Below are positions 22,650 through 49,093 of a stretch of 64,000 nt of DNA, one piece after another (within the stretch, counting starts at the first letter, position 1; each line of letters begins with the position of its first letter). The notes below the pieces were generated by a model. It worked only from the letters and a program-made list of their open reading frames with translations, searched no databases and had not been told where the DNA came from. The stretch is taken from NCBI GenBank assembly GCA_000004985.1, contig GG738883.1, one strand, 5' to 3'. This stretch comes from Naegleria gruberi. Lineage: Eukaryota. The translations under genes and the position numbers were made by a program.

Positions 22650-24089
22650 TTACTCCTCATTCATAGAAATTTCTAAAAACCTCGTTCCATTAAAATCTTT
22701 AATTGTTTCAATAACAATCTTATCTATTGGATCTGATAATAGCAATACTTCTAACCCTTTCTTGGAATACTGTTCAATAAGTACTTCATTAATATTGGTT
22801 TCAATGCTTAGCAAAAAGTAAATGAATGTTTGTCCCTCCATCATTCTTGAACAATAATCCCTCAAACTCGACCACTCCGTCCTTTTGCAATTCGAGTGAA
22901 ATCTCAAAAGGTCTGTCAGAAGTAATCTATTTGAATCATCTAAAATCACTCCCATCTTGATTTTCCTTCCAAAATTTTGGTAGAAGTTCTTATAATCATC
23001 CTTATTTTCAGCAAGTCTTTCAAACATTTGCAATGTTGCCCTTGTCACACGTTTCCTTATTACTTTTAAAATTTTGTTTTCAGAAAATTGATATAAATTA
23101 AGAGGTAAATCTTCCGAATCTACCAATACTCTCATGAAATCCAAATAGTCTGGTACAATATATTTGCAATTATCCATTATAAACGTGCTTCTTATGTACA
23201 GATGACTGACAAGCTCATAATTAAAATGGGCCACCTTTGGAATAAACAATAGTAATTTGAATTCAAGAATTCCTTCAACTCTGTAATGAGACATGGTCAA
23301 GTAATCTTCCCAATCATTTGACATTTCCTTATAGAACTGTAAATATTCACTTTTTGAAATTTTTTCAGGATCTCTTGTCCACAAGGGCTGATCTTTGTTC
23401 AAAAACTCACATTTCTGTTCATTATTTTCATCCAGAGTCTGTAGTAACACTGGATATCTAATTGGTTTGGAAAGAACAGTCAGATACATCTTGAGAAATG
23501 AATTATCCAACAATACAAGTGAATCCTCATTCAAATATAGTGTTACTCTTGTTCCTCTTGTCAATTGTTCAGAACTTGTGTCACTTGCTACTTTGAAAAC
23601 TCCATCTCCACTCGATTTCCAAATAAATTGCTCATTTCCATGCATTTTAGATGAAACCACCACTTTTTCAGCAATCATAAATGCTAAATTAAATCCAAAA
23701 CAATTTCCAAACCGTTCCATTACACTACTTTTATCACCTTGTTTCAATAATTCAACATATAATTTCACTCTCTTACTCAAAGAACCTCCTAAATTCAACA
23801 CAAGATCATTCCTTGACATTCCAAATCCTGAATCAATAATACTCAATGATTTACTCTCCAAATCAGGAATTATTTTAATGAATAGTTGAGGTTCACTCAA
23901 CAAGACAGAAGAATCCGATAGACTTGCATATTTAATTCTATCCAAAGCATCAGAAGAGTTGGAAATTAGTGATTTGAGAATAGTTTGCAAGTTATTGGAA
24001 GGAGGAATTTGTTTCAATAATTTGATTAATTCTGCAATTTCCTCTTGAAATAAGAAAGTATCTTCCGATATCTGATGATCTGAAGCCAT
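22650..24089 (-). CDS. divergent, C-terminally short HSP90-family paralog (479 aa from MASDHQISEDTF...)
   Basis: EDTFLFQEEIAELIKLL...LISNSSDALDRIKYASLSD aligns with HSP90 ETFAFQAEIAQLMSLI...LISNSSDALDKIRYESLTD. IDSGFGMS aligns with DTGIGMT. FGNCFGFNLAFMIAEKVVV aligns with FGVGFYSAYLVAEKVTV. GTRVTLYLNED aligns with GTKVILHLKED. No MEEVD tail is present. Confidence 0.7.
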   Translation of the reverse strand: MASDHQISEDTFLFQEEIAELIKLLKQIPPSNNLQTILKSLISNSSDALDRIKYASLSDSSVLLSEPQLFIKIIPDLESKSLSIIDSGFGMSRNDLVLNLGGSLSKRVKLYVELLKQGDKSSVMERFGNCFGFNLAFMIAEKVVVSSKMHGNEQFIWKSSGDGVFKVASDTSSEQLTRGTRVTLYLNEDSLVLLDNSFLKMYLTVLSKPIRYPVLLQTLDENNEQKCEFLNKDQPLWTRDPEKISKSEYLQFYKEMSNDWEDYLTMSHYRVEGILEFKLLLFIPKVAHFNYELVSHLYIRSTFIMDNCKYIVPDYLDFMRVLVDSEDLPLNLYQFSENKILKVIRKRVTRATLQMFERLAENKDDYKNFYQNFGRKIKMGVILDDSNRLLLTDLLRFHSNCKRTEWSSLRDYCSRMMEGQTFIYFLLSIETNINEVLIEQYSKKGLEVLLLSDPIDKIVIETIKDFNGTRFLEISMNEE

Positions 24090-24573
24090 TTTTTTAATAT
24101 ATTGTAATGGATAATATTTTGTAAACAACATGCAGGAAAAATAGCGTTGGTCTGATGAAAATTAAATTGTCATCAACACAATTTCTTATGGAAAGACACC
24201 ATACAATAAAAGTAAGTTGTAGGTTCAATTACTGGTCCTAACAAGGATTTTTCTTCAGCTAAAACACTCAAAAAAATACAACAAATTCACTTCTAAAAAA
24301 AACCTCCATCGGTACGGTTTTGGCTTTTTTCGTTCTCTTCATCACAAAGTTAAACCGTTGTTGTGTATTTTAAAAAGGCTTTGCAGAATAAGAAATAACA
24401 TCGGCCCACAACATCAACATCTTCAACAACAACAACAACAAAATTTAAAAACACAACAGGTGATAGATTTCTACCTGATACAATCTAGGCTATTAACTGA
24501 TTCATCATCAATTTGATCAAAATACTTTTCAACAATACAATTTCACGGATATGATAAAAACAAAACAATCACA

Positions 24574-25941
24574 ATGAATACTCAACTCTCCAATAATAAC
24601 CAATCCTCTTCCTCTGAACCCCACGAAATTTCAACTCACAAACAAAATGATGAAGCAAACAATATTCCAGTTGACGTTGCTTCTGGTGATCCTAATTCCC
24701 AATCATGGGTGAATTTACAACAACAGTTCATGGGAAATCCACATTACATGCCACCAAATATGACACCACAACAATACTATTATATGACTCTGTGGTTAAT
24801 GCAACAAAACGGAGGCAAGGATGATCCCAATAAGAAGAAAACAGACAATCCATCAATAATAGATCCATCAGGTGCTGCTCCAAACGGAGAAGCTGAAAAT
24901 CCATTAGGTATCTACCCACCACAAGTATATTTCCCATTTCCTGGCAACAATCCACCAAATAATTCACAAATTCCATCCCTAAATGTTGTTCAATCACAAG
25001 AAGACACAAACATTTCACAAGAAGCTGCAACACAAGAAAAGAAAACTAAAAGAAGAACAAAAGCCGCATCAACAACTCCTAAATCTTCAACTAAAAAACG
25101 AAAAAACACAAAGGAAGCAACAACTCCTGTTGAAGAAAGTTCTAACACACCAGATACACCAAAGAAAAAAAAGAAAAAGGAAACAACTTCTTCAAATGCA
25201 GGATCTAGTAGTAGAGGATCGAGAGGAGGACTTAGACATTTTAGTTTTAAAGTTTGCGAACTTGTTCAAAGAAAGAAAACAACTACAATTAATGATGTTG
25301 CTGATGAACTGGTTCAAGCAGAACTTCAAGATGAAGACAGTAAATCTGATGACAAGAACATTAGACGACGTGTTTATGATGCTCTCAACGTTTTAATGGC
25401 TTTAAATATTATTTCAAAAGATAAGAAAGAGATTAAGTGGAAGGGTTTACCTGTAGATTCACAAAAAGAATGTGAAGCATTGAATCAAATCAAATTACAA
25501 CGTTTAGAAATGATTCAAAAAAAAACTCAACAATTACAAGAACTTGAAAAACAACATCGATCATTATCAAGTTTATGTCAAAGAAATTCAAGCATGAATT
25601 TTGCAGAATCTAAGAGGATTGAATTACCTTTTATTATTGTTCATACATCAAAATCAACACAAATTGAATGCGAAATGGATGAAAATAGGTCTGAGGTATT
25701 TTTCAATTTCGACAAGCCTTTCGAAATTCATGATGATAATGAGATTTTATATAGGTTAAATCTAGGTTCAGATCAAAATCAATCTTCAAATCAACCAAGT
25801 GAGTCGAATAATATGAACATTTCAACATCAGGTCAAGCAGAAGATGACTTCTTTTCATTGGAACAACCCACAAACACTTCCTCTCCAAAAAAACCTTCTA
25901 ATAGCACTTCAAACAATGAAAAAGATATGGACACTCAATAA
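24574..25941 (+). CDS. tfdp: transcription factor Dp (TFDP, E2F dimerisation partner) homolog (455 aa)
   Basis: LRHFSFKVCELVQRKKTTTINDVADELV...DKNIRRRVYDALNVLMALNIISKDKKEIKWKGLP matches the DP winged-helix DNA-binding domain almost motif for motif. The downstream DP dimerisation region is also present (LPFIIVHTSKSTQIECEMDENRSEVFFNFDKPFEIHDDNEIL). Confidence 0.85.
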   Translation: MNTQLSNNNQSSSSEPHEISTHKQNDEANNIPVDVASGDPNSQSWVNLQQQFMGNPHYMPPNMTPQQYYYMTLWLMQQNGGKDDPNKKKTDNPSIIDPSGAAPNGEAENPLGIYPPQVYFPFPGNNPPNNSQIPSLNVVQSQEDTNISQEAATQEKKTKRRTKAASTTPKSSTKKRKNTKEATTPVEESSNTPDTPKKKKKKETTSSNAGSSSRGSRGGLRHFSFKVCELVQRKKTTTINDVADELVQAELQDEDSKSDDKNIRRRVYDALNVLMALNIISKDKKEIKWKGLPVDSQKECEALNQIKLQRLEMIQKKTQQLQELEKQHRSLSSLCQRNSSMNFAESKRIELPFIIVHTSKSTQIECEMDENRSEVFFNFDKPFEIHDDNEILYRLNLGSDQNQSSNQPSESNNMNISTSGQAEDDFFSLEQPTNTSSPKKPSNSTSNNEKDMDTQ

Positions 25942-29437: not shown

Positions 29438-29816
29438 TGAAATTAAGAGTTCTTATTTGAACATTTTAAGTGCTTCTCGAGTAATTAAAATCTAGTGATG
29501 TTATTAGCTCACTTTTTTGATAGTCACGTCAAAGTTGGTATTGAATTTATTCTGGTTATAAGAATTACAACAAACCTAAAGCTTTACACTCAAAAAAATG
29601 TAGGTTTGATAATCATCTTAATTCTCTATTAAGTTTTGAAAGAATCTATGCAAGTAAATAGTGGAAGGCACAAATTTAGAATTGTCACCAAAGAATATTG
29701 AAAAATATTTTCCAACGTCATACCTTCTGCCTTGTTCATCTTCTCTGAGAATTTGTTTTCTCAGCACAGAAACTTCTCCGCAATATTCATAGCCTGAGCA
29801 ACACCATAGAAAAAAT

Positions 29817-32441
29817 ATGAACAATCGACAACTTCCCTCCAATTTTAACTTTTACGGGGAGACAACAACAGACTATCCCTCTGATTTTAATATGACAACA
29901 AATTTATTTGATGATTTTCTTGCTTCTTTAACTGAAACACATCTACTCACGGATAGTAATGTAAATACAAACAATAGCATGCTCCTTCCGCATAATGTAT
30001 CTTCTAATTTAATACCAACAACATCATCAACAAGTACATCATCATCGTCGACAATGTTGCCACCAATAACGGCACAAGATCTAACCGGTACTACATCTTC
30101 ACAAAACGATTCAAATTCTGGTCAACTTGTTACAAACGTTTCTCTAATTACAAATAATCAAAAATATCCATCAGGAATAATTCAAGATAATGTACATTTG
30201 TTTTTTGGTTCTCATGGTTCTTCAGATACATATAAATTGGAAGTTCAGGTAACGCCAATTGTTGATCAAATGATAATGAGTAATCAAACTAAACTTGTCA
30301 TACAAGTTAAAAGAGAAAATAGCAAGGAACTTTTGAAGAAGGCTCGTTGGGTATTGTCTTTGGAGAATAGAAAAGAAGAATGTATTTATCTCGTTCAAAA
30401 TAATAATTTTCCAAAAACAAGAAGAGGAAGAGGTATTAACGAATCTTGTTTATTTGCCTTCTCTCTGGAAAATTTACAAAATGTTCCTGAACAATTATTT
30501 CCAACATTTAAATTTCAATTTTACTCCAAGCTCATACCAGGAAGTTTCCCAACAGATTCGTTCACTGTTCCACCATCAACACAACTTTCTAGGCCAGAAG
30601 TATCCACATCCTCATCATCACCACCTACACAACAAATCATTTCCAATCCACCTATGATAGTAATGGAACAACCAAAACCTGTTATGAATAATATTCTCTT
30701 CCCAGCTTCTGCCTTTAATCAGTCAACCCAATCCTTTGATCCTATGTCACTTTTTAACTCTCTTACCGAACAATCCCAACAACAATCAGATGATCTAATT
30801 TATCAATCTTCAGGAAAAAAGAGGAAAAAGATAGAAATCTTTGAACCAAAGTTATTCTCAATCAATCCAATGTATGGAACTATTGGAAGCACTGTTGTTT
30901 TATTGGGCAATTTTAACGTTTTAAGTGAAAAAGCAGTCAAGGTCCATTTTGATCAAGTTGTTGTTGAGCATCCACATGCCGTTACGCCAAATACTATTGT
31001 TTGTACTGCTCCTGATCATGAAGATGGTAACTCTTTTGTTCAAGTTGTAGAAGAATTTGAACACTTCCAAATGAAAACTGAGCACAAAATTTTCAGATAT
31101 ATTTCACAAAGCTTCCAAATGGGTATCAACCAACTCGTCTTTAATTCAGGCCCAAGACCTTACCAATCACCACCTTCATATCTTTCTCCTGGAGCTCCAA
31201 ACACTGACTCATCTTCTAGTTCTAACTCTTATAACTCAGGGCAAATGTTTTATGATAGTCTTAGACAAAATAATTTACATAGAGCAGCTTATGATGGTGA
31301 TTTGAGGGCTGTTGTTTCAATTCTTGAAAGCAGATCATGTGATCCATTTGAATTGGACAATTTTAAGAGAAGTCCATTCCACATTGCTTGTGCTATGGGT
31401 CACTTATCAGTTGTTCAAGCATTATGGACTCATATTGTTGATATTCTTCCTGAAGAAGAGGATGAAGATGAAGACGTACTTGCATCTGTTCTCTTATATC
31501 AACAGGATAGTTTCTCAATGACACCTCTCGATTTAGCTTCAAAGATTATAGACGACAATGAACATGATGTTATTTTCTTCCTTAAAGACAAATTAGTCAC
31601 CTATCCAAACTTGAATACAAAGCTAGGTAATGGTGATCTAGTTCTAGTAGAAAACGAGGTACACGAACGTAAACTAAATCAATTGAAGCACTTATTCCCA
31701 TCCTTTGACGATTTCTTCATTAGAGAAATTCTTGAGAGATGTGGTTGGAGTGAGACAGAAGCTGCTGCTTTGGTTTTATGCCAACAATTTGAATCCAATA
31801 TCTGTGCCAAATCATCTATGACTTCTAAGGAAGTTTTCATGGTAATAGAGAAACAAAAGGCCATCAATCAACTCATTGATTTTATGAACATGTCTCCCTT
31901 CTCAACACTTTTAGCAAACAAACTTTCTAGATTCTTTGATCCAGAGAAGCATTTCGAAAATTATGAAAAGGAAATCAAACACAAGTTTTCTAAAAAGATT
32001 TACAAGATTGAAAACATTGTTCATCCCGAGCTTCAACTCAGATTCAGCCAATATATCAATCAAGAAGAAAACCCACTGATATTTATGACATTCCACGGAA
32101 CAAGTGAACAAAATGTTTCTAGTATTAAGGAACACGGTCTCTTGGTTCCTGGAAAGGGTAATGATATTAGACCAGTTAATGGTAGCGAGTATGGATTGGG
32201 TATTTACACATCATTCTCGGGTACTTCATCAATTGAGTATTGTTATGGTGGTAACAAGATGTTTGTTTGTGCTGTGTGCGTTAGGGACAAGATTGTTATA
32301 AGTGAAGATGGAAATGTTCTTGTTGTTTTTGATGAAAGATCAGTATTGCCTTGCTGGCTGATAACATTTGAAAACCGAGTTGAAAATGTTCAAGAACCTG
32401 TCAATATGAACTATAACAATAACCTTCTCAGACAAATCTAA
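29817..32441 (+). CDS. multidomain PARP-family protein (874 aa), gene A. An S/T-rich N-terminal region is followed by IPT/TIG, ankyrin repeats, a CUE domain and a C-terminal PARP catalytic-like domain.
   Basis: TIG domain: PKLFSINPMYGTIGSTVVLLGNF...IVCTAPDHEDG. ANK: LHRAAYDGDLRAVVSILE...SPFHIACAMGHLSVVQAL. CUE: LNQLKHLFPSFDDFFIREILERCGWSETEAAALVL. PARP-like: FHGTSEQNVSSIKEHGL...YGLGIYTSFSGTSSIEY...VLVVFDE. Confidence 0.75.
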   Translation: MNNRQLPSNFNFYGETTTDYPSDFNMTTNLFDDFLASLTETHLLTDSNVNTNNSMLLPHNVSSNLIPTTSSTSTSSSSTMLPPITAQDLTGTTSSQNDSNSGQLVTNVSLITNNQKYPSGIIQDNVHLFFGSHGSSDTYKLEVQVTPIVDQMIMSNQTKLVIQVKRENSKELLKKARWVLSLENRKEECIYLVQNNNFPKTRRGRGINESCLFAFSLENLQNVPEQLFPTFKFQFYSKLIPGSFPTDSFTVPPSTQLSRPEVSTSSSSPPTQQIISNPPMIVMEQPKPVMNNILFPASAFNQSTQSFDPMSLFNSLTEQSQQQSDDLIYQSSGKKRKKIEIFEPKLFSINPMYGTIGSTVVLLGNFNVLSEKAVKVHFDQVVVEHPHAVTPNTIVCTAPDHEDGNSFVQVVEEFEHFQMKTEHKIFRYISQSFQMGINQLVFNSGPRPYQSPPSYLSPGAPNTDSSSSSNSYNSGQMFYDSLRQNNLHRAAYDGDLRAVVSILESRSCDPFELDNFKRSPFHIACAMGHLSVVQALWTHIVDILPEEEDEDEDVLASVLLYQQDSFSMTPLDLASKIIDDNEHDVIFFLKDKLVTYPNLNTKLGNGDLVLVENEVHERKLNQLKHLFPSFDDFFIREILERCGWSETEAAALVLCQQFESNICAKSSMTSKEVFMVIEKQKAINQLIDFMNMSPFSTLLANKLSRFFDPEKHFENYEKEIKHKFSKKIYKIENIVHPELQLRFSQYINQEENPLIFMTFHGTSEQNVSSIKEHGLLVPGKGNDIRPVNGSEYGLGIYTSFSGTSSIEYCYGGNKMFVCAVCVRDKIVISEDGNVLVVFDERSVLPCWLITFENRVENVQEPVNMNYNNNLLRQI

Positions 32442-33119: not shown

Positions 33120-36100
33120 ATGGCAGATTTTCAGAAGGCGTTTTATGCTGCGAGAGACGGCAAAATTGATGAATTTAATAATTATTTTAATGAACAAGAT
33201 GTTAATAATAAATCACAGTATGGTCAAACCATGTTGTGGGTTGCTTGCTTCAACGGACATTTAGAAATTGTTAAATTATTATTATCATGTAAAACAATTG
33301 ATGTTAATTTGGGAGTAAGTATTTAATATTTAATGTAATTTTATATTTATAATATTAGAATGTAAGTATTTAATATTATTTTTATTTATATTTATAATAT
33401 TAGAGAGTAAGTATTTTAATATTTAATTTTATTTATAATATTAGGATGTAAGTATTTAATATTTAATTTTATTTATATATTTAATATTAGTCACCATTAT
33501 ACACTGCTTGCCAAAATGGACATTTAGAAATTGTTAAATTATTATTATCATGTAAAACAATTGATGTTAATTTGACTGTAAGTTTAATATTTAATGTAAT
33601 TTTATATTTATAATATTAGGATGTAAGTATTTAATATTTAATATTATTTATATTTATAATAATAGTATGTAAGCATTTTAATATTTAATATTATTTATAT
33701 TTATAATATTAGAGAGTAAGTATTTAATATTTAATTTAATTTTATACTTTTAATTAGGATGTAAGTTAAATATTAAATATTATTTATATTTATAATATTA
33801 GTATGTAAGTATTTTAATATTAATTTTATTTATATATATAATATTAGTCACCATTATACATTGCTTGCCGATATGGATATTTAGAAATTATTAAACAATT
33901 ACTTCAACATCCAAATATTGAAATAGATAGCACATTGTCAGTGAATGGAATTAATATTCAAACAATTAAAAGTAACATGGAAAAAGAACAACAACAAATA
34001 TTAAAAGAACAATTAGAACAAGAAGAGTTTAAACAACTAGAAGTGGAAAGATTAGAAAGAGACAGAATTAAAAAATTAGAAATGGAAAGATTAGAAAGAG
34101 AAAGAATTGAAAAGGAACATTTACTAAAAATAGAAAGAGAAAGATTAGAACGAAAAGAATTGGAGAAAAAACAACCATTCATAATCACATCTGAAACATT
34201 TTCAAAATTATGTTCACTCAACCAACAAATTGATAATAATAGAAGAAAAATTGAAAAACAATTTGAATCAATTCAATCATTTTTTTCTTCTATTCAAATT
34301 AAGAAAGAATTTGAAGATGAATATTTAACAATTTGTGATAATTTAAATAATTGTTGTAATTTAATTGACAAATTAACAAGTAATAATTATAATATTGAAA
34401 ATAACGAACATTTGTTAAATATTAATAATTTGATGAATAATATTAGAACTATATTGGAATTTATTAATAATCAAAAATACTTATTTAAATTACAATCTTA
34501 TTCAGAAGTATTAAAAGACAAATTACAATTATTTAATGAATTTAATTCTCAATTTATTAAACAAGAATTATTTGACAATATTGAAATGAGTGAACAATCT
34601 ATTAAGAATATAAAAAGTATTAATATAGTTCCAACTCATAATAAATTTAGAAATGAAACTAAAACAACATTACAACAAGTTACAAAACAATTATCAAATA
34701 TTGTTAACTCAATCAATAATTGTAATGAAATTGATTTGTCACAATTTTCAAATAATTTACAAAAAGCAATGGAATTATCAGAACAAGAAGAATTATATTT
34801 AAATAATATATTGTCAAATTGTAAAGTATTAATTTCAGACAATGATCAAATGAATATTTTACAATTATTTAATTTTTATCAAACACAAGAATTAAATTGT
34901 AAATTATTAATTCAAGAAACAATTCCATATATAATTGAAAAATATGAAATGTTACAAAATATTATAAATATTATGGATGATTATTCAAATTTATCAGAAC
35001 AATTTAAAACTATTCAAAGACAAAAAACAAAAATTACAAGAAATTTACATATTGTAAATCTAGATATTGAAGGATTAAAAGATGAATTGAAACATGTCAA
35101 TAATGACGATGAAATTAAAGATGAAATTCAAACTAAAGAAAAGAATTTAATTGAATTAAAATCTAATTTGAAGGAAAATATTCAAAAGTTAAATGAAATT
35201 AAAATGAAATTTCTTCAATTAAAAACAATTGGATTTGATATTAAATCAAACATGACAAGTGATTTATTATCTAATTTAAATATTAATGAAATGACACCTG
35301 AAATGTTTAAAGAAATTAAACCAATTCAAAATTGGAATGGAAATCATAATGTTTTTATTGGAATTGATTTAAATGATAAAAAACATATAATTAAACAATA
35401 TAATTTAAAAGATAAGAAATCAATTGAAGGTTTAGAAAAGGAATTGAAAATAACAAACAAATTAAAGCACGCAAATATTATTGAAATTGAAGGAATTTAC
35501 ACTGAAGCTGATAACAAACACAGTACCACTAATGTATTTATTGTAATGCCATATTATTCAAATGGAAATTTGAAAGAATTTATTCAAACTAAAAGAAATC
35601 ATCAAAGTAATACTTTAAATTTATTATTTTGGGAAAGAACATGGAGACAATTATTAATTGGAATTCAACATGTACATTCCAGAGGTGTTATTCATTGTGA
35701 TATAAAACCAGAGAATATATTTGTTGGTGATAAAGATGAATCAACAGAATATTATCCAATTATTTTAGGTGATTTTGATATTAGTTTAGATATAACAAGT
35801 AGAACAATGAATTTATTCACAAGAACAAGTGGAATTGCTGGTACATTAGATTATTTATCACCTGAACTAGTGAATGGAAAAACATCAGCAACATTTAGAT
35901 CTGACATGTTTGCATTTGGTAAAACAATTCAAAATTGTATGACAGATCAAGAATTGAAACAATTCAAATCATTGAATAATTTATGTGAAGAGTGTTTGAA
36001 TTCAGATGTAAATTTGAGACCATTTGCATCTGATGCACTTGCAAATGAATTCTTTATGAAAGAAACATTATTAGATGAAGTTAAAATTCAGAAACATGTT

Positions 36101-37113
36101 CAATTAATCGAAAATCAATCAAAAGAATTGAAAGATTATCACAATCAATTGAATGAATTTGAATTGAAAATGAAAAAAAATCATGAAAATTTGAAAACTG
36201 AAATTTTAAATCTAGAAAAGGAAAAGAAACAATTTTCAAATTCAAAGCAAAGGAAAACGAAGAAATTTCAAAGAAATTACAAAATTTGAAACAAAAAGAA
36301 ATTGAAATTGAGAAAATGGAAAAGGAAATTAAAGAATCAAAATCCAAACAATTAACAATATCACTTCCAGGTTATTGGAAAAGAAACACATTCCCAAGCT
36401 ATTCGAAAAGATATTACACTGTTGATGTTACACAATATTTAAAAGATACAATGCAAGAAATTATGAATGCATCCTGTAATTCTGCAACACTTGGATCTGG
36501 AAGAGATCAAGTATCAAGAATTATGTATTCTAAATTGATTGTTTCCAGTGTTTCAAGAATTGAAAATTCAACACTTTTCACTTCATTCAAATCAAGAATG
36601 AATCAGTTAATTTCATATCAAGATTCAATTAATTCACTCCAAGTTCAGACTGAAAATATTTCAAAAACATCAAAAACATTTGAATGGATGAAAACAATTG
36701 GATTGAATTCTAATATGAATGAAAAATATTTATGGCATGGAACAAAACCTGAATTTGTGAATACAATTGCAGAACATGGATTCGATGAAAGAGTTGCAAA
36801 TTTAAATGGATTATTTGGAGCAGGTATTTATTTTGCAGAATATTGTTCAAAGAGTGATCAATATTGTACGCCTGATCATTCCAATGAATTTACTCTATTA
36901 TTATGTAGAGTTGTAATGGGAAGACAAATTCATTTCACAAAACAAGTGATGAATAATCAGAGAAGACCACCTGAAATTTCAGGAAGTAATAATAGAGTTT
37001 ATGATAGTGTTATTGGTCAATCAAATACTTCAACTAATTCATATAGAGAATTCATTGTCTATGATAAATGTCAATGTTATCCTGAATTTATAATTAAATA
37101 CAAGAGACAATAA
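33120..37113 (+). CDS. gene B: ankyrin repeats + long coiled coil + Ser/Thr protein kinase domain + coiled coil + PARP catalytic domain. Exons are 33120..33314, 33491..33577 and 33848..36289, with introns 33315..33490 and 33578..33847. There is a single-base frame break near 36254-36257, after which the ORF continues to 37113.
   Basis: AAAAAAATG start. Exon-1 ANK: MLWVACFNGHLEIVKLLLSCKTIDVNLG|GTAAGT. Exon 2: SPLYTACQNGHLEIVKLLLSCKTIDVNLT. Exon 3: SPLYIACRYGYLEIIKQLL..., in frame with ORF 33935..36289. Kinase motifs: HCDIKPENIF, GDFDIS, GTLDYLSPE. PARP motifs: LWHGTKPEFV, GAGIYFAEY, YREFIVYD (an H-Y-E triad). Restoring one A in the A-run at 36254-36257 joins the kinase ORF to the PARP ORF through a continuous coiled coil (...SNSKQKENEEISKKLQNLKQKEIEIEKMEKE...). 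Confidence 0.7.
33315..33490 (+). repeat. intron 1 of gene B: a tandem array of about 4 mini-intron-like units of ~45 bp each (GTAAGTATTTAATATT...TTTATAATATTAG)
   Basis: Direct reading shows repeated GTAAGT...ATATTAG units separated by 3-4 nt. Confidence 0.8.
33578..33847 (+). repeat. intron 2 of gene B: a tandem array of about 6 mini-intron-like units of ~45 bp each. The flanking exons 2 and 3 are diverged duplicates of the exon-1 ankyrin cassette.
   Basis: As above. In addition, 33262..33314 and 33521..33577 are nearly identical at the nucleotide level. Confidence 0.8.
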
Positions 37114-41252: not shown

Positions 41253-43713
41253 ATGCTCCCTCAGACAAATAGTGATGATGATTCGCTGATTGATGATGAT
41301 CAACTTGCATCAATTTACGAAGCAATCTATCCATCAAATCAAATTAATGTAGTTGACAATAATAATAATCAAAGTGTATTAATTGATGATATAATGATTG
41401 TTGATCCTTCTTCGGAATCAACATTTAGGATCTATTTGAATGAATTTATATTTACAGAATATGAATATGTTGAAGTTACTCGTAATTATGAAAACCAAAA
41501 GGAATACAGAAAAACAAATGTCAATGCATGTGGTTGGTTGAAGAAGAATACTAAGAATTCTACTCCATACTTGGATAATAAGACGTATCAAATACCATTA
41601 GATCCTAATGGTGACTACTTTATTGAGAAACTGTTGCTAGTACAGATTAGCCCTGGTAAGATTCCAAAGAGATACTCTCTTGAGAGAACTATTCCTGAAT
41701 TTAGAGTCGATGCAAGTGGTAATCGTTATATTGGAGCAAAATTGAGGAAAATCAAAGCATTTAATGCTAATCAAGAAACTGTGAACAGAATTTTGAGGAT
41801 TTCCAAACATATACAGGATAAATTGATCCAAGAATGGCCTGAGAATTTGAGAGAAGATGTATTTTTATTACCATTGGTTTCCTCCTCAACTGGATCATCA
41901 GATATTTCACTGTTCAATGGTATTCCTTACTTGGATGTTTTGGAACAATTCTTCTCTAACAATAGTTTACTTATCCAAGATGCTGAGTTTGAGAAAAGGT
42001 TGAAAAACCCAAAAGGTTTATTAGTCAGATGTGAGCAAACATTTGAATACTCAATTTTAGGTAAGTATTTTACGCACAATTTTACCAATAGTTTCACCAG
42101 TTGGTCATTATCAAGGAAAATTGCTTGGCAGAAAACTCACCAAAGAATTGGTAAAGTGCTTCATTAGTAACCCACACTTAATAAGTGCCAAGAATGCTGA
42201 CATTGAAATTGATCCAAGTTATGTTTCATTCCCCAGATATGGACTTGAACTTGTTGAACAATTAAGAGAGCAATTTTACATGGAGTTAGATGTATTAATC
42301 CAGATGAATCACTATCAAAAAATGTTAGATTTTTATATTATCAAATTTCCTGGTTACCGTTTTCTTAAGGATCCATTATTGATTAGGGTAGCCCATACCT
42401 TCCCTTCCTATGCACACAAAATGAATTTTGGTCGTGGTCACTATGAGAGATTAGAGTTTATGGGAGATTCTGTGGTTAATCTTACTGCTTGTGTAGAACT
42501 GATCAAATCTTGCAGAAACGATGATTCAAAGAAGGGAGATTGGAATGCTGGATTCACTGTATTGATTGCCAACGATTCAATTACCAGAGAAGCAGAAAAG
42601 TTACAAATTTCTGAACATTTCCTCAATAGTTCTGATAAGTTTTCAAAAAAGGCACAGTCCAATGTTATTGAGTCTATCATTGGAGCATTGTACATGGCTG
42701 AAGGAATAAGAGGTGCTCGATCTTTTGCAAAGGAATTACTTATACCAACTAGCATTGACTTTAAATGTCTAAAGAAATTTTCTAGCTCCTTCCCAAGCGT
42801 TTCAAATGAGGGAGAGCAATGGAAAAGAGATGTTGAGCATATGAAGTTATTTATTGGACAAGATATTATAGAAAAATTGCAAGACATTTTGCATTATAGA
42901 TTTAGGGATGTTGGATTGATACAAGAGGCTCTAATTAGCTGCAGTTACAATAACACATTTATGGATCTAAGAAATGTACCCATGACTGAAAAGATTCAAA
43001 AATTTTTGAAAAAGAGAAATGATAGCAAAATAGTTGGCCTTTATCATTTGTACAATAATGAACAACTCAAATTATTGGGATCAGCACTACTCAAGTTTAT
43101 GGTCACTGAATTTGTTTACAAGAGATTTACAGAAGCACAGCCAAGCAAATTAACTTTGCTGGCTCACCAAATAATCTCAAAGCAAGGCAAAGTATTCTCA
43201 GCTATCCATGAAAAGTTTAGATTTGATCAATTCTTAATGAAGACTGATATCGACGCTGATTATTCAGAAATTCAGCAATCCTATGACTGTTTTACTGCCC
43301 TTTTGGGAGCTATTTTCATGGATCAAGATTGTTTATTTTATAAGTTTGAATTTGCAACAATTTCTAACACCTATACAGAAGAGCTTGCCAATTCTACTGA
43401 TCCTTGCTCATCTTATTTCCTCAAAAGACATGATGTTACTCCTGACAAGTTCTTCTATTCATTCTTGTTCCCTTATATCGAACAGTTTGAGTTGAGCCCT
43501 TATACCATTGAGCCTCCAAAGAAGCACACACTTCAACATTTGATCCAAGTCAACCACAAAAGCGTTCCATCTTATGTAAAGAATCAGGACGTATCCCAAG
43601 AGTTTTGTGTTACTATTATGGTAAATGGACAAGAGTTCAGTAAGGGTGTTTCTTCTAAATCTTTTGCAGAAGCAGAAGAACAAGCAATAGAAATGGGCTT
43701 GAAAATGTTTTAG
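41253..43713 (+). CDS. Dicer/Drosha-like class-3 RNase III (about 806 aa): two RNase III domains plus a C-terminal dsRBD, with no helicase or PAZ. Exons are 41253..42060 and 42101..43713, separated by a 40-nt intron.
   Basis: The RNase III signature is HYERLEFMGDSVV. The second domain is LLGSALLKFMVTEFVY...DCFTALLGAIFMDQD. The dsRBD is KKHTLQHLIQVNHKSVPSYV...EAEEQAIEMGLKMF. Removing GTAAGTATTTTACGCACAATTTTACCAATAGTTTCACCAG at 42061..42100 joins the two ORF-track ORFs in frame. Confidence 0.75.
42061..42100 (+). other. 40-nt spliceosomal intron (GTAAGT...CACCAG)
   Basis: This is the only canonical GT..AG choice that joins the 41253 ORF (phase 1) to the 42121 ORF frame. Confidence 0.65.
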
Positions 43714-46525: not shown

Positions 46526-49093
46526 TTACCAATAGTCACCACAAGTACATTTTCCATCCTTAAAATGGTGGAACCGTGAGGCATCACGAATTATTATTTC
46601 ACAATTTCTAACTGCTGACAACAATTTAGTGGCATTATGGCAATCTCCACAAACCCTCAAGTTCGTTGTTAAATGAATTGTTGATGTATTTGGCTGTTTG
46701 TTGAAAGCATATGCCATGGCTATCTTTTCAGAATGTTTGTATAGTAAATCCAGTTTTTCTGCATCAGTGTCAACATTTTTAATCACCCAGCTTAGGTCTG
46801 GTTGATAACCTGCCTTAATGAGATCAGCTACCATTTTTTTTAGTTCTTTCTCTATCATCTTTATCTCTGGATGCTCCTTTTCTTCACAAACAAAAGAATG
46901 CATTTTCCCTTCGATACAAACTTGCGTCATACTTGGTAACTTTTTAAATCCACCAAATTCCATCAACTCTTTAACCCTTTTGGCGTCTTCGTACATGTCT
47001 TGAGAAGCATAAATGTTAGCCATTAAAATGAAGTGAGATGATTCCACTTCATTTCGTTCAATAAGCATATTGAAAAGTTTCTCTGCTAAGGTGACATTGT
47101 TGAATTTTCTACAGACCCCAAATAAAGTGGACACAGTAACAACGTCAGGACTGATACAAGACCCTAGCAATTTCTCAGCCTCTTTAATATTACCTTTTCT
47201 TGCCAATGCATCGATCAAACATGCCAAATGTATGTTTGATGGTTTGATTGAATATTTGGACTCCATGTGGTTGTATATTTCTTTTGCTTCGTCCACCATA
47301 CCACAATGGCCACATGCATGCAACACACATGTTAGAGTATGCTCATTTGGTTTAATATTTTCTTTGCTCATTTGGTTCAAAAGTTCAATAGCCTTCAATC
47401 CCATTCCATGTATTGCATAAGCATTTATGATACAGGTCCACGAAACAACATCTTTGTTTGGTACTGAGAGGAAAACTTCATGTGCACTTGTTAAATCTCC
47501 ACATTTTGCATACATATTAATGAGTGCATTAAACAAGTTGTGGTCTCTGATTCTTAGCTCACTAATATTTCTGTGAATTATTTTTCCAAAATCCAAATTT
47601 CCAAATTCAGAGCATACAGAAAGAAGCAAAATAAGGGTTGGTACATCTGGAACCAAGTTGTTATTGATCATATCTTCGTACAGGGAGATAGCTTCTGGCA
47701 TTTTCTTAAGATTGGCCCATAACTTTATCATACATCCATAATGTGCTGTAATTCTTGCTATCTTGAATAAGGTGTTCATATTATCGAACAAGAAACATGC
47801 TTCTTGTTCCATAGAATGATTTGCAAAAAATGTTAACATAACCGTCATGGTTACATCATTCGGTTGGGTATACTTTGGCATGATCTTGAAATAAAGTAAT
47901 AATCTTTTTGTATCTCCATTTTGGGAGCATCCCTTAAGAAATGAGTTCCATGTTATTACATCTTTGAATTCCATTTGGTTGAATATTGATTCTGCATGTT
48001 CTACTTTACCACTCTTCAAAAACGAATCCAAAAGAACATTGAAAACAAAAACAGAGGTAACGCCTTCACTAATAATAATACTTTCTATTTCTTCCAACCT
48101 ACCCTCTTCACAATACGTTGGTATGATTAGTGTCCAAGTTGTATCGTCCAGTTGTTTCGTTTTAAGCATCTTCATAAACAGTTCTATTGCTGTTTGAGTT
48201 TCCCCACATTTCGAAAACATGTTAATGAGATTATTCTGAACAGTAATACTCCTGTATAGTTCATAATTTTTCATAATTGTTTCGTGCAATTTTTTCCCAT
48301 TAACTAGAGATCGAGTAATAGCACATCCTTTCAACAAAAGAATAAATGTTACTTCGTTTGGAATGAGTTCTTTCTCTTGTCTGTAAATATTCATAGCTTC
48401 CTCACTTTCTCCATTCTCAATCAATGCCTTTATCAGACAATTAAAGTGAATAATATCTGGAGAAACGCCATATTCTTTCATTGAAAAATAAATTTCTTTG
48501 GCCTTTTCGCTCATGTTTGAATTGGCAAGAGAATTCAATAGTGAAGAAAATGTTTTGGGTTCTATTGGAATCTGTTTGCTTTTGACATATTTTAACAATT
48601 CAAATATGGTGGAAATATGTCCTGTATTGCAAAATCCTCTAATAATATAATTCCATGTTGGTGGATTTACTTTCTTCTTATATTCTTCTTGTAATGAAAG
48701 CATAATTGTTGAGAGATCATCCCATAATGAGGTACTTCTGTCACTGCTTTCGATTTTGCAATAACTTATTAATGAAATAATAACAAAATAATTTAAAAGT
48801 GATTTCTCCTTCAATAAATAATAGGCTTTAAAAGAATCATCCAACGACAACAATCTTTTTGATATGAGTAAGTTGGCATCAAAGGAATTTGGTTTCTGGA
48901 AAAAATGTTTCGTTGCTGAATCAACTTTTCCTTCGGCTATTAAATTTCGAACCACTCGATAATCAAAAACAGGAGAGTACGTATGGAAACTATGAAATTT
49001 ATTTGTATCACTAAACTTCAGAGTTTCCATATAAGATTTCTTGCACTTAAGGTTCTTGAAAAGAAAATTTTCAGCACAAACCAGCACACGCAT
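46526..49093 (-). CDS. pentatricopeptide-repeat protein with a C-terminal DYW cytidine-deaminase domain (855 aa); a putative organellar C-to-U RNA-editing factor
   Basis: AAAAAAATG start. There are more than 15 PPR-like 35-aa repeats. The C-terminus reads HSEKIAMAYAF...LRVCGDCHNATKLLSAVRNCEIIIRDASRFHHFKDGKCTCGDYW*, carrying the HxE and CxDCH zinc motifs and the terminal DYW. Confidence 0.85.
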   Translation of the reverse strand: MRVLVCAENFLFKNLKCKKSYMETLKFSDTNKFHSFHTYSPVFDYRVVRNLIAEGKVDSATKHFFQKPNSFDANLLISKRLLSLDDSFKAYYLLKEKSLLNYFVIISLISYCKIESSDRSTSLWDDLSTIMLSLQEEYKKKVNPPTWNYIIRGFCNTGHISTIFELLKYVKSKQIPIEPKTFSSLLNSLANSNMSEKAKEIYFSMKEYGVSPDIIHFNCLIKALIENGESEEAMNIYRQEKELIPNEVTFILLLKGCAITRSLVNGKKLHETIMKNYELYRSITVQNNLINMFSKCGETQTAIELFMKMLKTKQLDDTTWTLIIPTYCEEGRLEEIESIIISEGVTSVFVFNVLLDSFLKSGKVEHAESIFNQMEFKDVITWNSFLKGCSQNGDTKRLLLYFKIMPKYTQPNDVTMTVMLTFFANHSMEQEACFLFDNMNTLFKIARITAHYGCMIKLWANLKKMPEAISLYEDMINNNLVPDVPTLILLLSVCSEFGNLDFGKIIHRNISELRIRDHNLFNALINMYAKCGDLTSAHEVFLSVPNKDVVSWTCIINAYAIHGMGLKAIELLNQMSKENIKPNEHTLTCVLHACGHCGMVDEAKEIYNHMESKYSIKPSNIHLACLIDALARKGNIKEAEKLLGSCISPDVVTVSTLFGVCRKFNNVTLAEKLFNMLIERNEVESSHFILMANIYASQDMYEDAKRVKELMEFGGFKKLPSMTQVCIEGKMHSFVCEEKEHPEIKMIEKELKKMVADLIKAGYQPDLSWVIKNVDTDAEKLDLLYKHSEKIAMAYAFNKQPNTSTIHLTTNLRVCGDCHNATKLLSAVRNCEIIIRDASRFHHFKDGKCTCGDYW

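Follow-up and report, generated by a model that had tools for sequence, protein, structure and literature searches.

Ubiquitin and ADP-ribosylation meet in many known proteins; more than 100 PARP architectures have already been catalogued, and ubiquitin-related domains accompany PARPs of all clades (PMC4245714). PARP10, for example, binds ubiquitin through its UIMs and is confined to vertebrates, and PARPs with ubiquitin modules are otherwise widespread, including PARP6/8-like proteins with UBA, UBCc or RWD domains and WWE-containing PARPs (PMC4245714). The catalytic residues of PARP10 are H-Y-I, and the enzyme is described there as a mono-ADP-ribosyltransferase (mono-ART) acting by substrate-assisted catalysis (Kleine et al., 2008, as cited in PMC4245714). 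Within Naegleria, a combination of ankyrin repeats with a PARP domain has been noted in N. gruberi as convergent with tankyrases (Perina, 2014; PMC4245714), a tankyrase-like ART domain has been reported in N. fowleri (PMC9688111), and two other, short H-Y-E PARPs have been discussed (Citarelli, 2010). Here we describe gene A, found at positions 29817-32441 (+) of a 64,000-nucleotide stretch of Naegleria gruberi DNA (assembly GCA_000004985.1, contig GG738883.1; hereafter the window). Its predicted product places an Ig-like domain, a TIG domain, ankyrin repeats and a CUE domain ahead of a compact PARP domain, and it is probably a mono-ART. A literature search found no account of a CUE or TIG plus PARP architecture in Naegleria.

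Several described systems share features with gene A. PARP10 (ARTD10) resembles it in combining His and Tyr with a hydrophobic third residue (Ile in PARP10, Val in gene A) and in carrying a ubiquitin-binding module N-terminal to the ART domain. Unlike gene A, however, PARP10 has UIMs and an RRM and lacks CUE, TIG, ankyrin and Ig-like domains, and the ART domain of gene A is ~25 residues shorter before strand beta-5; because sequence similarity is low, we do not propose orthology between the two. PARP12 and PARP13 (ZAP), members of Clade 3, are the best matches of the gene A family profile (1.5e-9), and PARP12 is hydrophobic at the position of the Val in gene A, but both carry CCCH zinc fingers and WWE domains that gene A does not have, and ZAP lacks the catalytic His and is inactive. 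Tankyrases likewise have ankyrin repeats upstream of the PARP domain, but they are H-Y-E polymerases with five ankyrin repeat clusters (ARCs) and a SAM domain, in contrast to the H-Y-V signature and ~3 repeats of gene A.

The PARP6/8-like proteins with UBA or UBCc domains (Acanthamoeba, Trichomonas, fungi, plants) resemble gene A in fusing a PARP domain to a domain of the ubiquitin system, and UBA and CUE domains are related three-helix ubiquitin binders. Their PARP clade is nevertheless another one, which has a Cys-rich motif, and they use another ubiquitin module and lack TIG, ankyrin and Ig-like domains (PMC4245714). A different likeness is offered by CAMTA, Spt23/Mga2 and NF-kB p100/p105, in which an Ig-type or TIG domain is followed by ankyrin repeats and a basic motif resembling a nuclear localization signal (NLS) is present; none of them has a CUE or PARP domain, and gene A has no CG-1, IQ, Rel homology domain (RHD), C-terminal transmembrane segment or death domain.

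Gene A and its compact ART domain

Gene A is one uninterrupted open reading frame (ORF) of 874 codons followed by TAA, and an in-frame TAG lies at 29790, 27 nt 5' of its ATG. At 31.6% GC, a run of 874 codons free of stops would arise by chance with a probability of ~4e-31, as estimated from the base composition. The window is AT-rich throughout (~32% GC), and its ORFs are long, intron-poor and eukaryotic. The protein is 100% identical to N. gruberi NEG-M XP_002674587.1 (UniProt D2VN20), labeled "PARP domain-containing protein", and gene A is already catalogued in public databases. From the N-terminus, the order is Ig-like domain, KKRKK motif, TIG, ankyrin repeats, CUE and C-terminal compact PARP domain, with the following features:

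29817..32441 (+): gene A, one exon coding for 874 aa and a stop; same protein as N. gruberi XP_002674587.1 / D2VN20
29853..29921 (+): short conserved motifs YGETTTD (aa 13-19) and acidic-hydrophobic DDFL (aa 32-35); invariant alignment columns
30129..30524 (+): predicted lineage-specific Ig-like beta-sandwich (aa 105-236) with invariant basic loop NNFPKTRRG (aa 196-204); conservation, model
30813..30830 (+): invariant GKKRKK (G333-K338); invariant columns, classical monopartite NLS pattern K-K/R-x-K/R
30843..31106 (+): IPT/TIG domain (aa 343-430); Pfam near cutoff, ortholog matches
31254..31610 (+): ~3 ankyrin repeats (aa 480-598) with acidic insert EEEDEDED at ~aa 546-553; Pfam, DARPin matches, model
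31650..31796 (+): CUE-type three-helix domain (aa 612-660); sub-cutoff Pfam, ortholog-profile PDB matches, model
31797..31964 (+): conserved helical linker (aa 661-716) into the PARP domain; identity 52-73%, helices 668-691, 697-706 and 709-723
31965..32381 (+): compact PARP/ART catalytic domain (aa 717-855); Pfam PARP, PDB alignments, family profile
32094-32096, 32205-32207 and 32316-32318 (+): codons of the predicted catalytic residues H760, Y797 and V834, respectively; PDB alignments
32382..32441 (+): C-terminal tail (aa 856-874 including the stop codon) with end motif NNNLL(K/R)QI; invariant columns N867-I874

Full-length colinear homologs of gene A were found in N. lovaniensis (61% identity), N. 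fowleri (58%), Willaertia magna (48%) and metagenome-derived sequences (59%), and the gene is heterolobosean-specific. The N. lovaniensis ortholog is named "CUE domain-containing protein" in UniRef, and at the two loci inspected (N. lovaniensis and W. magna) the ortholog is likewise a single-exon, uninterrupted ORF. Conservation was read from an alignment of five sequences, the gene A protein and four orthologs. Identity in this alignment is highest in the ART domain (84-89%) and falls to 13-37% in the low-complexity linkers; purifying selection is strongest on the ART domain. The N. fowleri gene model (P0004) lacks ~26-30 residues directly after the CUE domain (alignment columns ~750-785), where it reads 'CCQPD' and the other orthologs have a conserved 'CEQFENNI...KEVFMVIEKQKA'; the gap is likely a mis-predicted intron in the annotation.

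The PARP domain is clearly recognized. Pfam PARP (PF00644) matches residues 717-826 with 45.4 bits against a gathering cutoff of 26.7 (E 8.4e-12) and is matched by all five aligned sequences; the match spans profile positions 15-122 of 199, leaving the C-terminal third outside. H760-G761 aligns with the His-Gly motif of PARP chains in the PDB (PARP2, PARP4, PARP10), Y797 (in GIYTS) with the first Tyr of the PARP motifs, and S805 and Y808 with the Ser-x-x-Tyr of PARP2, so that the His and Tyr of the triad reported by the first-pass annotation are indeed present. These five residues, together with V834 and the donor loop GLLVPGKGN, are invariant in all gene A orthologs, and the residues of the NAD+/nicotinamide pocket appear intact. 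PARP10 is the best single-sequence match of gene A in the PDB (0.011).

The third position of the triad was placed with the help of distant relatives. A PARP profile built from the orthologs recovered seven distant short PARP proteins (P0008-P0014), which have in common the pattern HGT..N..SI..GLLVPGKGN..GS.YGLGIYTS, including the donor-loop motif GLLVPGKGN of gene A. They are 149-319 aa long and come from metagenomes or short contigs (P0009 from L002), of ~1 kb for P0008 and P0009, and some share the deletion before beta-5. Members of this wider compact family have V, E, Y or A at the third position of the triad. Compared with the PDB, the wider-family profile matches PARP12 (1.5e-9), ZAP/PARP13 (1.5e-9), PARP4 (3.8e-8), PARP1 (2e-6) and PARP10 (3e-6), and it aligns end to end with solved PARP structures, including beta-5 and beta-6 of PARP12. 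In this alignment "DGNVLVVF" of gene A lies opposite "DPSIFVIF" of PARP12 and "EDDEFVVY" of PARP4, and V834 pairs with Ile in PARP12 and with Glu in PARP4; a weaker HMMER alignment to PARP10 agrees (Ile). P0009 retains a canonical "YDSHV...GTEWVLF" context with Glu at the V834 position and thereby bridges the alignment.

Read in this way, the catalytic signature of gene A is H-Y-V (H760-Y797-V834). The first-pass annotation had read the third position as VVFDE, outside the canonical context, and had proposed a mono-ART or an inactive domain. Both observations stand up to the PDB and family-profile alignments, in which the triad residue is V834 rather than Glu and the Glu of VVFDE, E840, lies six residues further on; the retained His and Tyr with Val in third place fit either proposal. 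Gene A has no catalytic Glu at the start of beta-5, as the H-Y-E class (PARP1/2, tankyrases) would require, and V834 occupies that position in all orthologs. The pattern matches instead the H-Y-hydrophobic signature of mono-ART PARPs (PARP10/12/14/15), in which His and Tyr are kept and a hydrophobic residue replaces Glu.

The domain is also compact, because ~25 residues between beta-3 and beta-5 are absent relative to PARP12. Beta-5 is flanked by the invariant acidic residues E830, D831, D839 and E840, and in a low-confidence AlphaFold2 (AF2) model the order of secondary structure fits the PARP fold, with beta-5 beginning at V834. Given that V834 and every pocket residue are unchanged among the orthologs and that no other part of the protein is as well conserved, the ART domain is under constraint and probably catalytic.

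Accessory domains and readings of gene A

The combination of TIG, ankyrin, CUE and PARP domains claimed by the first-pass annotation holds under profile testing. The PARP and ankyrin calls are clear, and those of TIG and CUE are marginal in the sequence of gene A itself and backed by the orthologs or by the ortholog profile. The N-terminal Ig-like domain, the KKRKK motif, the conserved end motifs and the compaction of the PARP domain had been missed.

Near the N-terminus, Y13, G14, E15, T17, T18, D19, D33, F34 and L35 are invariant within a region that is disordered and poorly conserved, with a predicted local distance difference test score (pLDDT) below 30; one may speculate that the YGETTTD and DDFL motifs play an activation-domain-like role. 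The block at aa 105-236 is 57-75% identical among orthologs and has no Pfam match, and a hidden Markov model of this N-terminal domain retrieved only the orthologs from 1.84 billion representative proteins. Modeled alone, it forms an Ig-like beta-sandwich (pLDDT 83.8, predicted template modeling score 0.78) for which no specific fold relatives were detected; on this model, it is a lineage-specific Ig-like domain with an exposed invariant basic loop. The GKKRKK motif immediately precedes the TIG domain, and KKRKK may act as a nuclear localization signal.

The TIG region is 72-81% identical among orthologs and beta-rich in the low-confidence full-length AF2 model. Pfam TIG (PF01833) has been precomputed for P0003, a member of the gene A family, and we accept the domain as real because four of the five aligned sequences match it individually (best E 4.9e-7). 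A TIG profile gave nothing meaningful against PDB sequences and zero matches in a set of 5.8 billion proteins. The earlier label of this TIG as a DNA-binding-factor type was not substantiated, as no CG-1, RHD or other DNA-binding domain was detectable. The ankyrin repeats are matched by Pfam Ank_4 (5.9e-9) and Ank_2 (8.1e-7) at aa 487-576, both above cutoff, and by DARPins down to 3.6e-17, and they are modeled as helix pairs with pLDDT ~70.

For the CUE region, the ortholog profile matched the SMARCAD1 CUE1-CUE2 chain 6h3a_D in the PDB (E 1.5e-5), isolated SMARCAD1 CUE1 (0.0095 for 6qu1_D, and 0.014) and the Tollip CUE domain 1wgl (0.025). Three helices (605-626, 632-641 and 646-663) are predicted at pLDDT 63-85 in the full-length AF2 model. 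By inspection, the invariant F627-P628 falls at the position of the CUE MFP motif and a hydrophobic pair, [VIL]653-L654 (V653-L654 in gene A, L654 invariant), at the di-leucine position. The evidence is favorable overall, and we accept the CUE as a real domain, one that may bind ubiquitin.

Taken together, we favor with moderate confidence a reading in which the gene A protein is a scaffolded mono-ADP-ribosyltransferase, probably in the nucleus, with Ig-like, TIG and ankyrin domains that would select partners and a CUE-type module that would serve ubiquitin or other protein binding, or dimerization. In such a mechanism, four interaction modules (Ig-like, TIG, ~3 ankyrin repeats and a CUE-type ubiquitin-binding or dimerization module) would recruit or position the protein, and the compact C-terminal ART domain would use NAD+ to attach single ADP-ribose units to bound targets. 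The nuclear location is suggested by KKRKK, and mono- rather than poly-ADP-ribosylation by the hydrophobic residue at the position of the chain-elongating Glu, as in PARP10 and PARP12. It is also reasonable to view the protein as a putative reader/writer linking ubiquitin to ADP-ribose, as first proposed from the sequence. Several points weigh against this reading. Both marginal domains score just below their Pfam cutoffs in gene A, TIG at 346-411 with 20.3 bits (cutoff 20.9) and CUE at 616-643 with 20.3 bits (cutoff 21.1; PF02845), and just two of the five aligned sequences match CUE individually. SMARCAD1 CUE1, the best CUE match, binds KAP1 as well as ubiquitin, so that a CUE fold is no proof of ubiquitin binding. 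The full-length AF2 model, built from the five-sequence alignment, has a mean pLDDT of 46.8 (~30 in the PARP region) and is unusable for active-site geometry, and the inactive ZAP/PARP13 is Y-Y-V, i.e., it too has Val at the third position.

This last point also bears on the possibility, which we consider unlikely but the most serious of the rivals, that gene A is a pseudo-enzyme, in which the PARP-like domain is dead, as in PARP13/ZAP or PARP9, and within the Ig-like/TIG/Ank/CUE scaffold would have a structural role, sense NAD+ or ADP-ribose, or bind proteins. Besides sharing its Val, ZAP is the joint-best PDB match of the family profile, and the missing ~25 canonical residues and the partial Pfam coverage would suit a degenerate domain. 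Gene A, however, retains the His that ZAP has lost; the nicotinamide-pocket residues G761, Y797, S805 and Y808 are all invariant; the donor loop is kept even in distant relatives, among them P0009 with its Glu at the V834 position; and 84-89% identity exceeds the usual need of a pure scaffold. A further reading, clearly less probable, would make the protein transcription-factor-like, its Ig-like, TIG and ankyrin domains forming a DNA-binding or latent-factor scaffold of the Rel/NF-kB p100, CAMTA or Spt23 kind, with the PARP domain modifying chromatin or partner factors and the CUE domain coupling it to ubiquitin-dependent activation. The Ig-like-TIG-Ank order does mirror NF-kB p100/p105, as TIG-Ank mirrors CAMTA and Spt23/Mga2, and KKRKK, the basic loop NNFPKTRRG and the N-terminal acidic DDFL motif are all invariant. 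No DNA-binding family or fold was detected in gene A, though: Pfam returned no CG-1 or IQ match at E<=1, and the pair RHD_DNA_bind plus RHD_dimer that defines a Rel homology domain was not found. More speculative still, and at best a slim possibility, is a latent Rel/Spt23/CAMTA-like nuclear regulator unique to Heterolobosea, in which the Ig-like basic loop, TIG and ankyrin repeats would together serve DNA or chromatin binding, with the CUE domain as a reader of ubiquitin and the H-Y-V ART domain as a writer of mono-ADP-ribose on chromatin proteins or on ubiquitin itself; if true, a ubiquitin reader and an ADP-ribose writer would be united in one polypeptide on a transcription-factor chassis.

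A tankyrase-like poly-ADP-ribose polymerase, whose ankyrin repeats recruit substrates and whose PARP domain makes poly-ADP-ribose chains, would accord with the convergence noted by Perina (2014), but we regard it as very improbable. The aligned catalytic Glu is absent and V834 is invariant, no SAM domain was matched by Pfam at E<=1, there are ~3 ankyrin repeats as opposed to five ARCs, and the closest PDB relatives are not tankyrases but PARP12, ZAP and PARP10 of the mono-ART class, plus PARP4. Finally, that gene A is an annotation or assembly artefact joining a TIG/Ank gene to a PARP gene can be discounted almost entirely. The ORF is continuous with its frame unchanged; the same colinear order recurs in N. 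lovaniensis, N. fowleri, W. magna and two metagenome-derived sequences; orthologs are colinear in four independent assemblies and a single uninterrupted exon at both loci inspected; and the inter-domain linker at 661-716 is conserved as well. Given these conserved single-ORF orthologs, a two-gene fusion artefact was rejected, with no point found in its favor.

Gene neighborhood and gene B

A cyclic-nucleotide-binding ion-channel gene lies 380 bp upstream of gene A and is divergently transcribed. The upstream order of a DP transcription factor, an unknown gene, the channel and then gene A is conserved in N. lovaniensis, where an extra 563-aa gene is predicted between the channel and gene A (L003 7796-9895), whereas N. 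gruberi has only a 380-bp divergent intergenic region (29438-29816). In W. magna there is no synteny with the gene A locus. Other genes of the window are as follows:

22650-24131 (-): HSP90 fragment ORF; domain scan
24574-25941 (+): E2F/DP-family transcription factor; domain scan
33120-37113 (+): gene B, ankyrin repeats, ~450 aa coiled coil, protein kinase and PARP; Pkinase 8.5e-30, PARP 1.3e-25
42121-43713 (+): double RNase III-domain (Dicer/Drosha-like) ORF; domain scan
46526-49093 (-): PPR protein of 855 aa with an E motif and a C-terminal DYW deaminase; DYW 1.9e-39

The RNase III, E2F/DP and HSP90 neighbors look like ordinary housekeeping context. The PPR-DYW protein has the architecture of a plant-type RNA-editing factor, and plant-type PPR-DYW proteins are already known in Naegleria. 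No macro-domain or PARG gene was found among the window ORFs scanned.

The second PARP gene, gene B, had been placed about 700 bp from gene A, and its first ATG is 678 nt downstream. The accompanying claim that the two PARP domains are not close paralogs agrees with their 35% identity over 52 aa (E 1e-4). A conserved adjacency of the two genes was considered and rejected, as it is absent in N. lovaniensis, where the downstream neighbor of the gene A ortholog is a pseudouridine synthase, and in W. magna. The two-PARP neighborhood is specific to N. gruberi and, because the adjacency is absent in those two species, the proximity is no sign of functional coupling.

The kinase-PARP fusion of gene B is unusual in itself. 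By inspection, WHGT, GIYFA and REFIVYD give its PARP domain a signature of the H-Y-E type. The PARP ORF (36286-37113, 275 aa) is not in the frame of the kinase ORF (33935-36289); over an A-rich coiled-coil stretch at 36202-36289 (+) both frames are open, both translations look like coiled coil, and no GT...AG intron signal accompanies the frame change. These features point to one Ank/coiled-coil/kinase/PARP gene split by a 1-nt frameshift, which could be real or a homopolymer error in the assembly. Citarelli (2010) left short H-Y-E Naegleria PARPs unplaced, and the 275-aa PARP ORF may correspond to one of these.

Gene B, whose first exon is counted from the ATG at 33120, also contains a tandem array (33315-33847, +) of 10 near-identical intron-like units, GTAAGTATTTAATATT...ATATTAG, of 38-44 nt each. 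The spacers are eight 3-nt segments (AAT, AGA, GAT, then GAT, TAT, AGA, GAT, TAT) and one 87-nt ankyrin exon. Tandem Repeats Finder reported ~12 copies with a period of ~46 and, at a higher order, a 263-nt repeat with 89% identity. With every unit spliced, the product would read ...DVNLG-NRD-SPLYTACQNGHLEIVKLLLSCKTIDVNLT-DYRDY-SPLYIACRYGYLEII..., and the ankyrin repeats would have 33 and 34 residues, as opposed to 30 and 29 if each array were one intron. Since splicing every unit restores the lengths of the ankyrin repeats, consecutive 3-nt micro-exons, arising by tandem duplication of an intron plus one codon, would be implied if every unit is indeed spliced out. A literature search on such an array found nothing.

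Significance of the gene A family

The novelty of gene A is modest, because ubiquitin-linked PARP architectures are already common: gene A combines a compact H-Y-V ART domain with accessory domains particular to its lineage and does not represent a new kind of system. What it adds is the combination of Ig-like, TIG, ankyrin and CUE domains with such an ART domain, which we did not find described in literature searches, and a lineage-specific Ig-like domain without detectable relatives. The family is kept across Naegleria, including the pathogen N. fowleri, and in Willaertia.

Its ART domain is a natural minimal PARP catalytic domain and could reveal which parts of the fold are dispensable. In addition, gene A may, through its CUE domain, connect ubiquitin with mono-ADP-ribosylation in a deep-branching eukaryote. 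Current understanding is not overturned by these findings; their value lies in offering a candidate for biochemical characterization and, in N. fowleri, a lineage-restricted enzyme.

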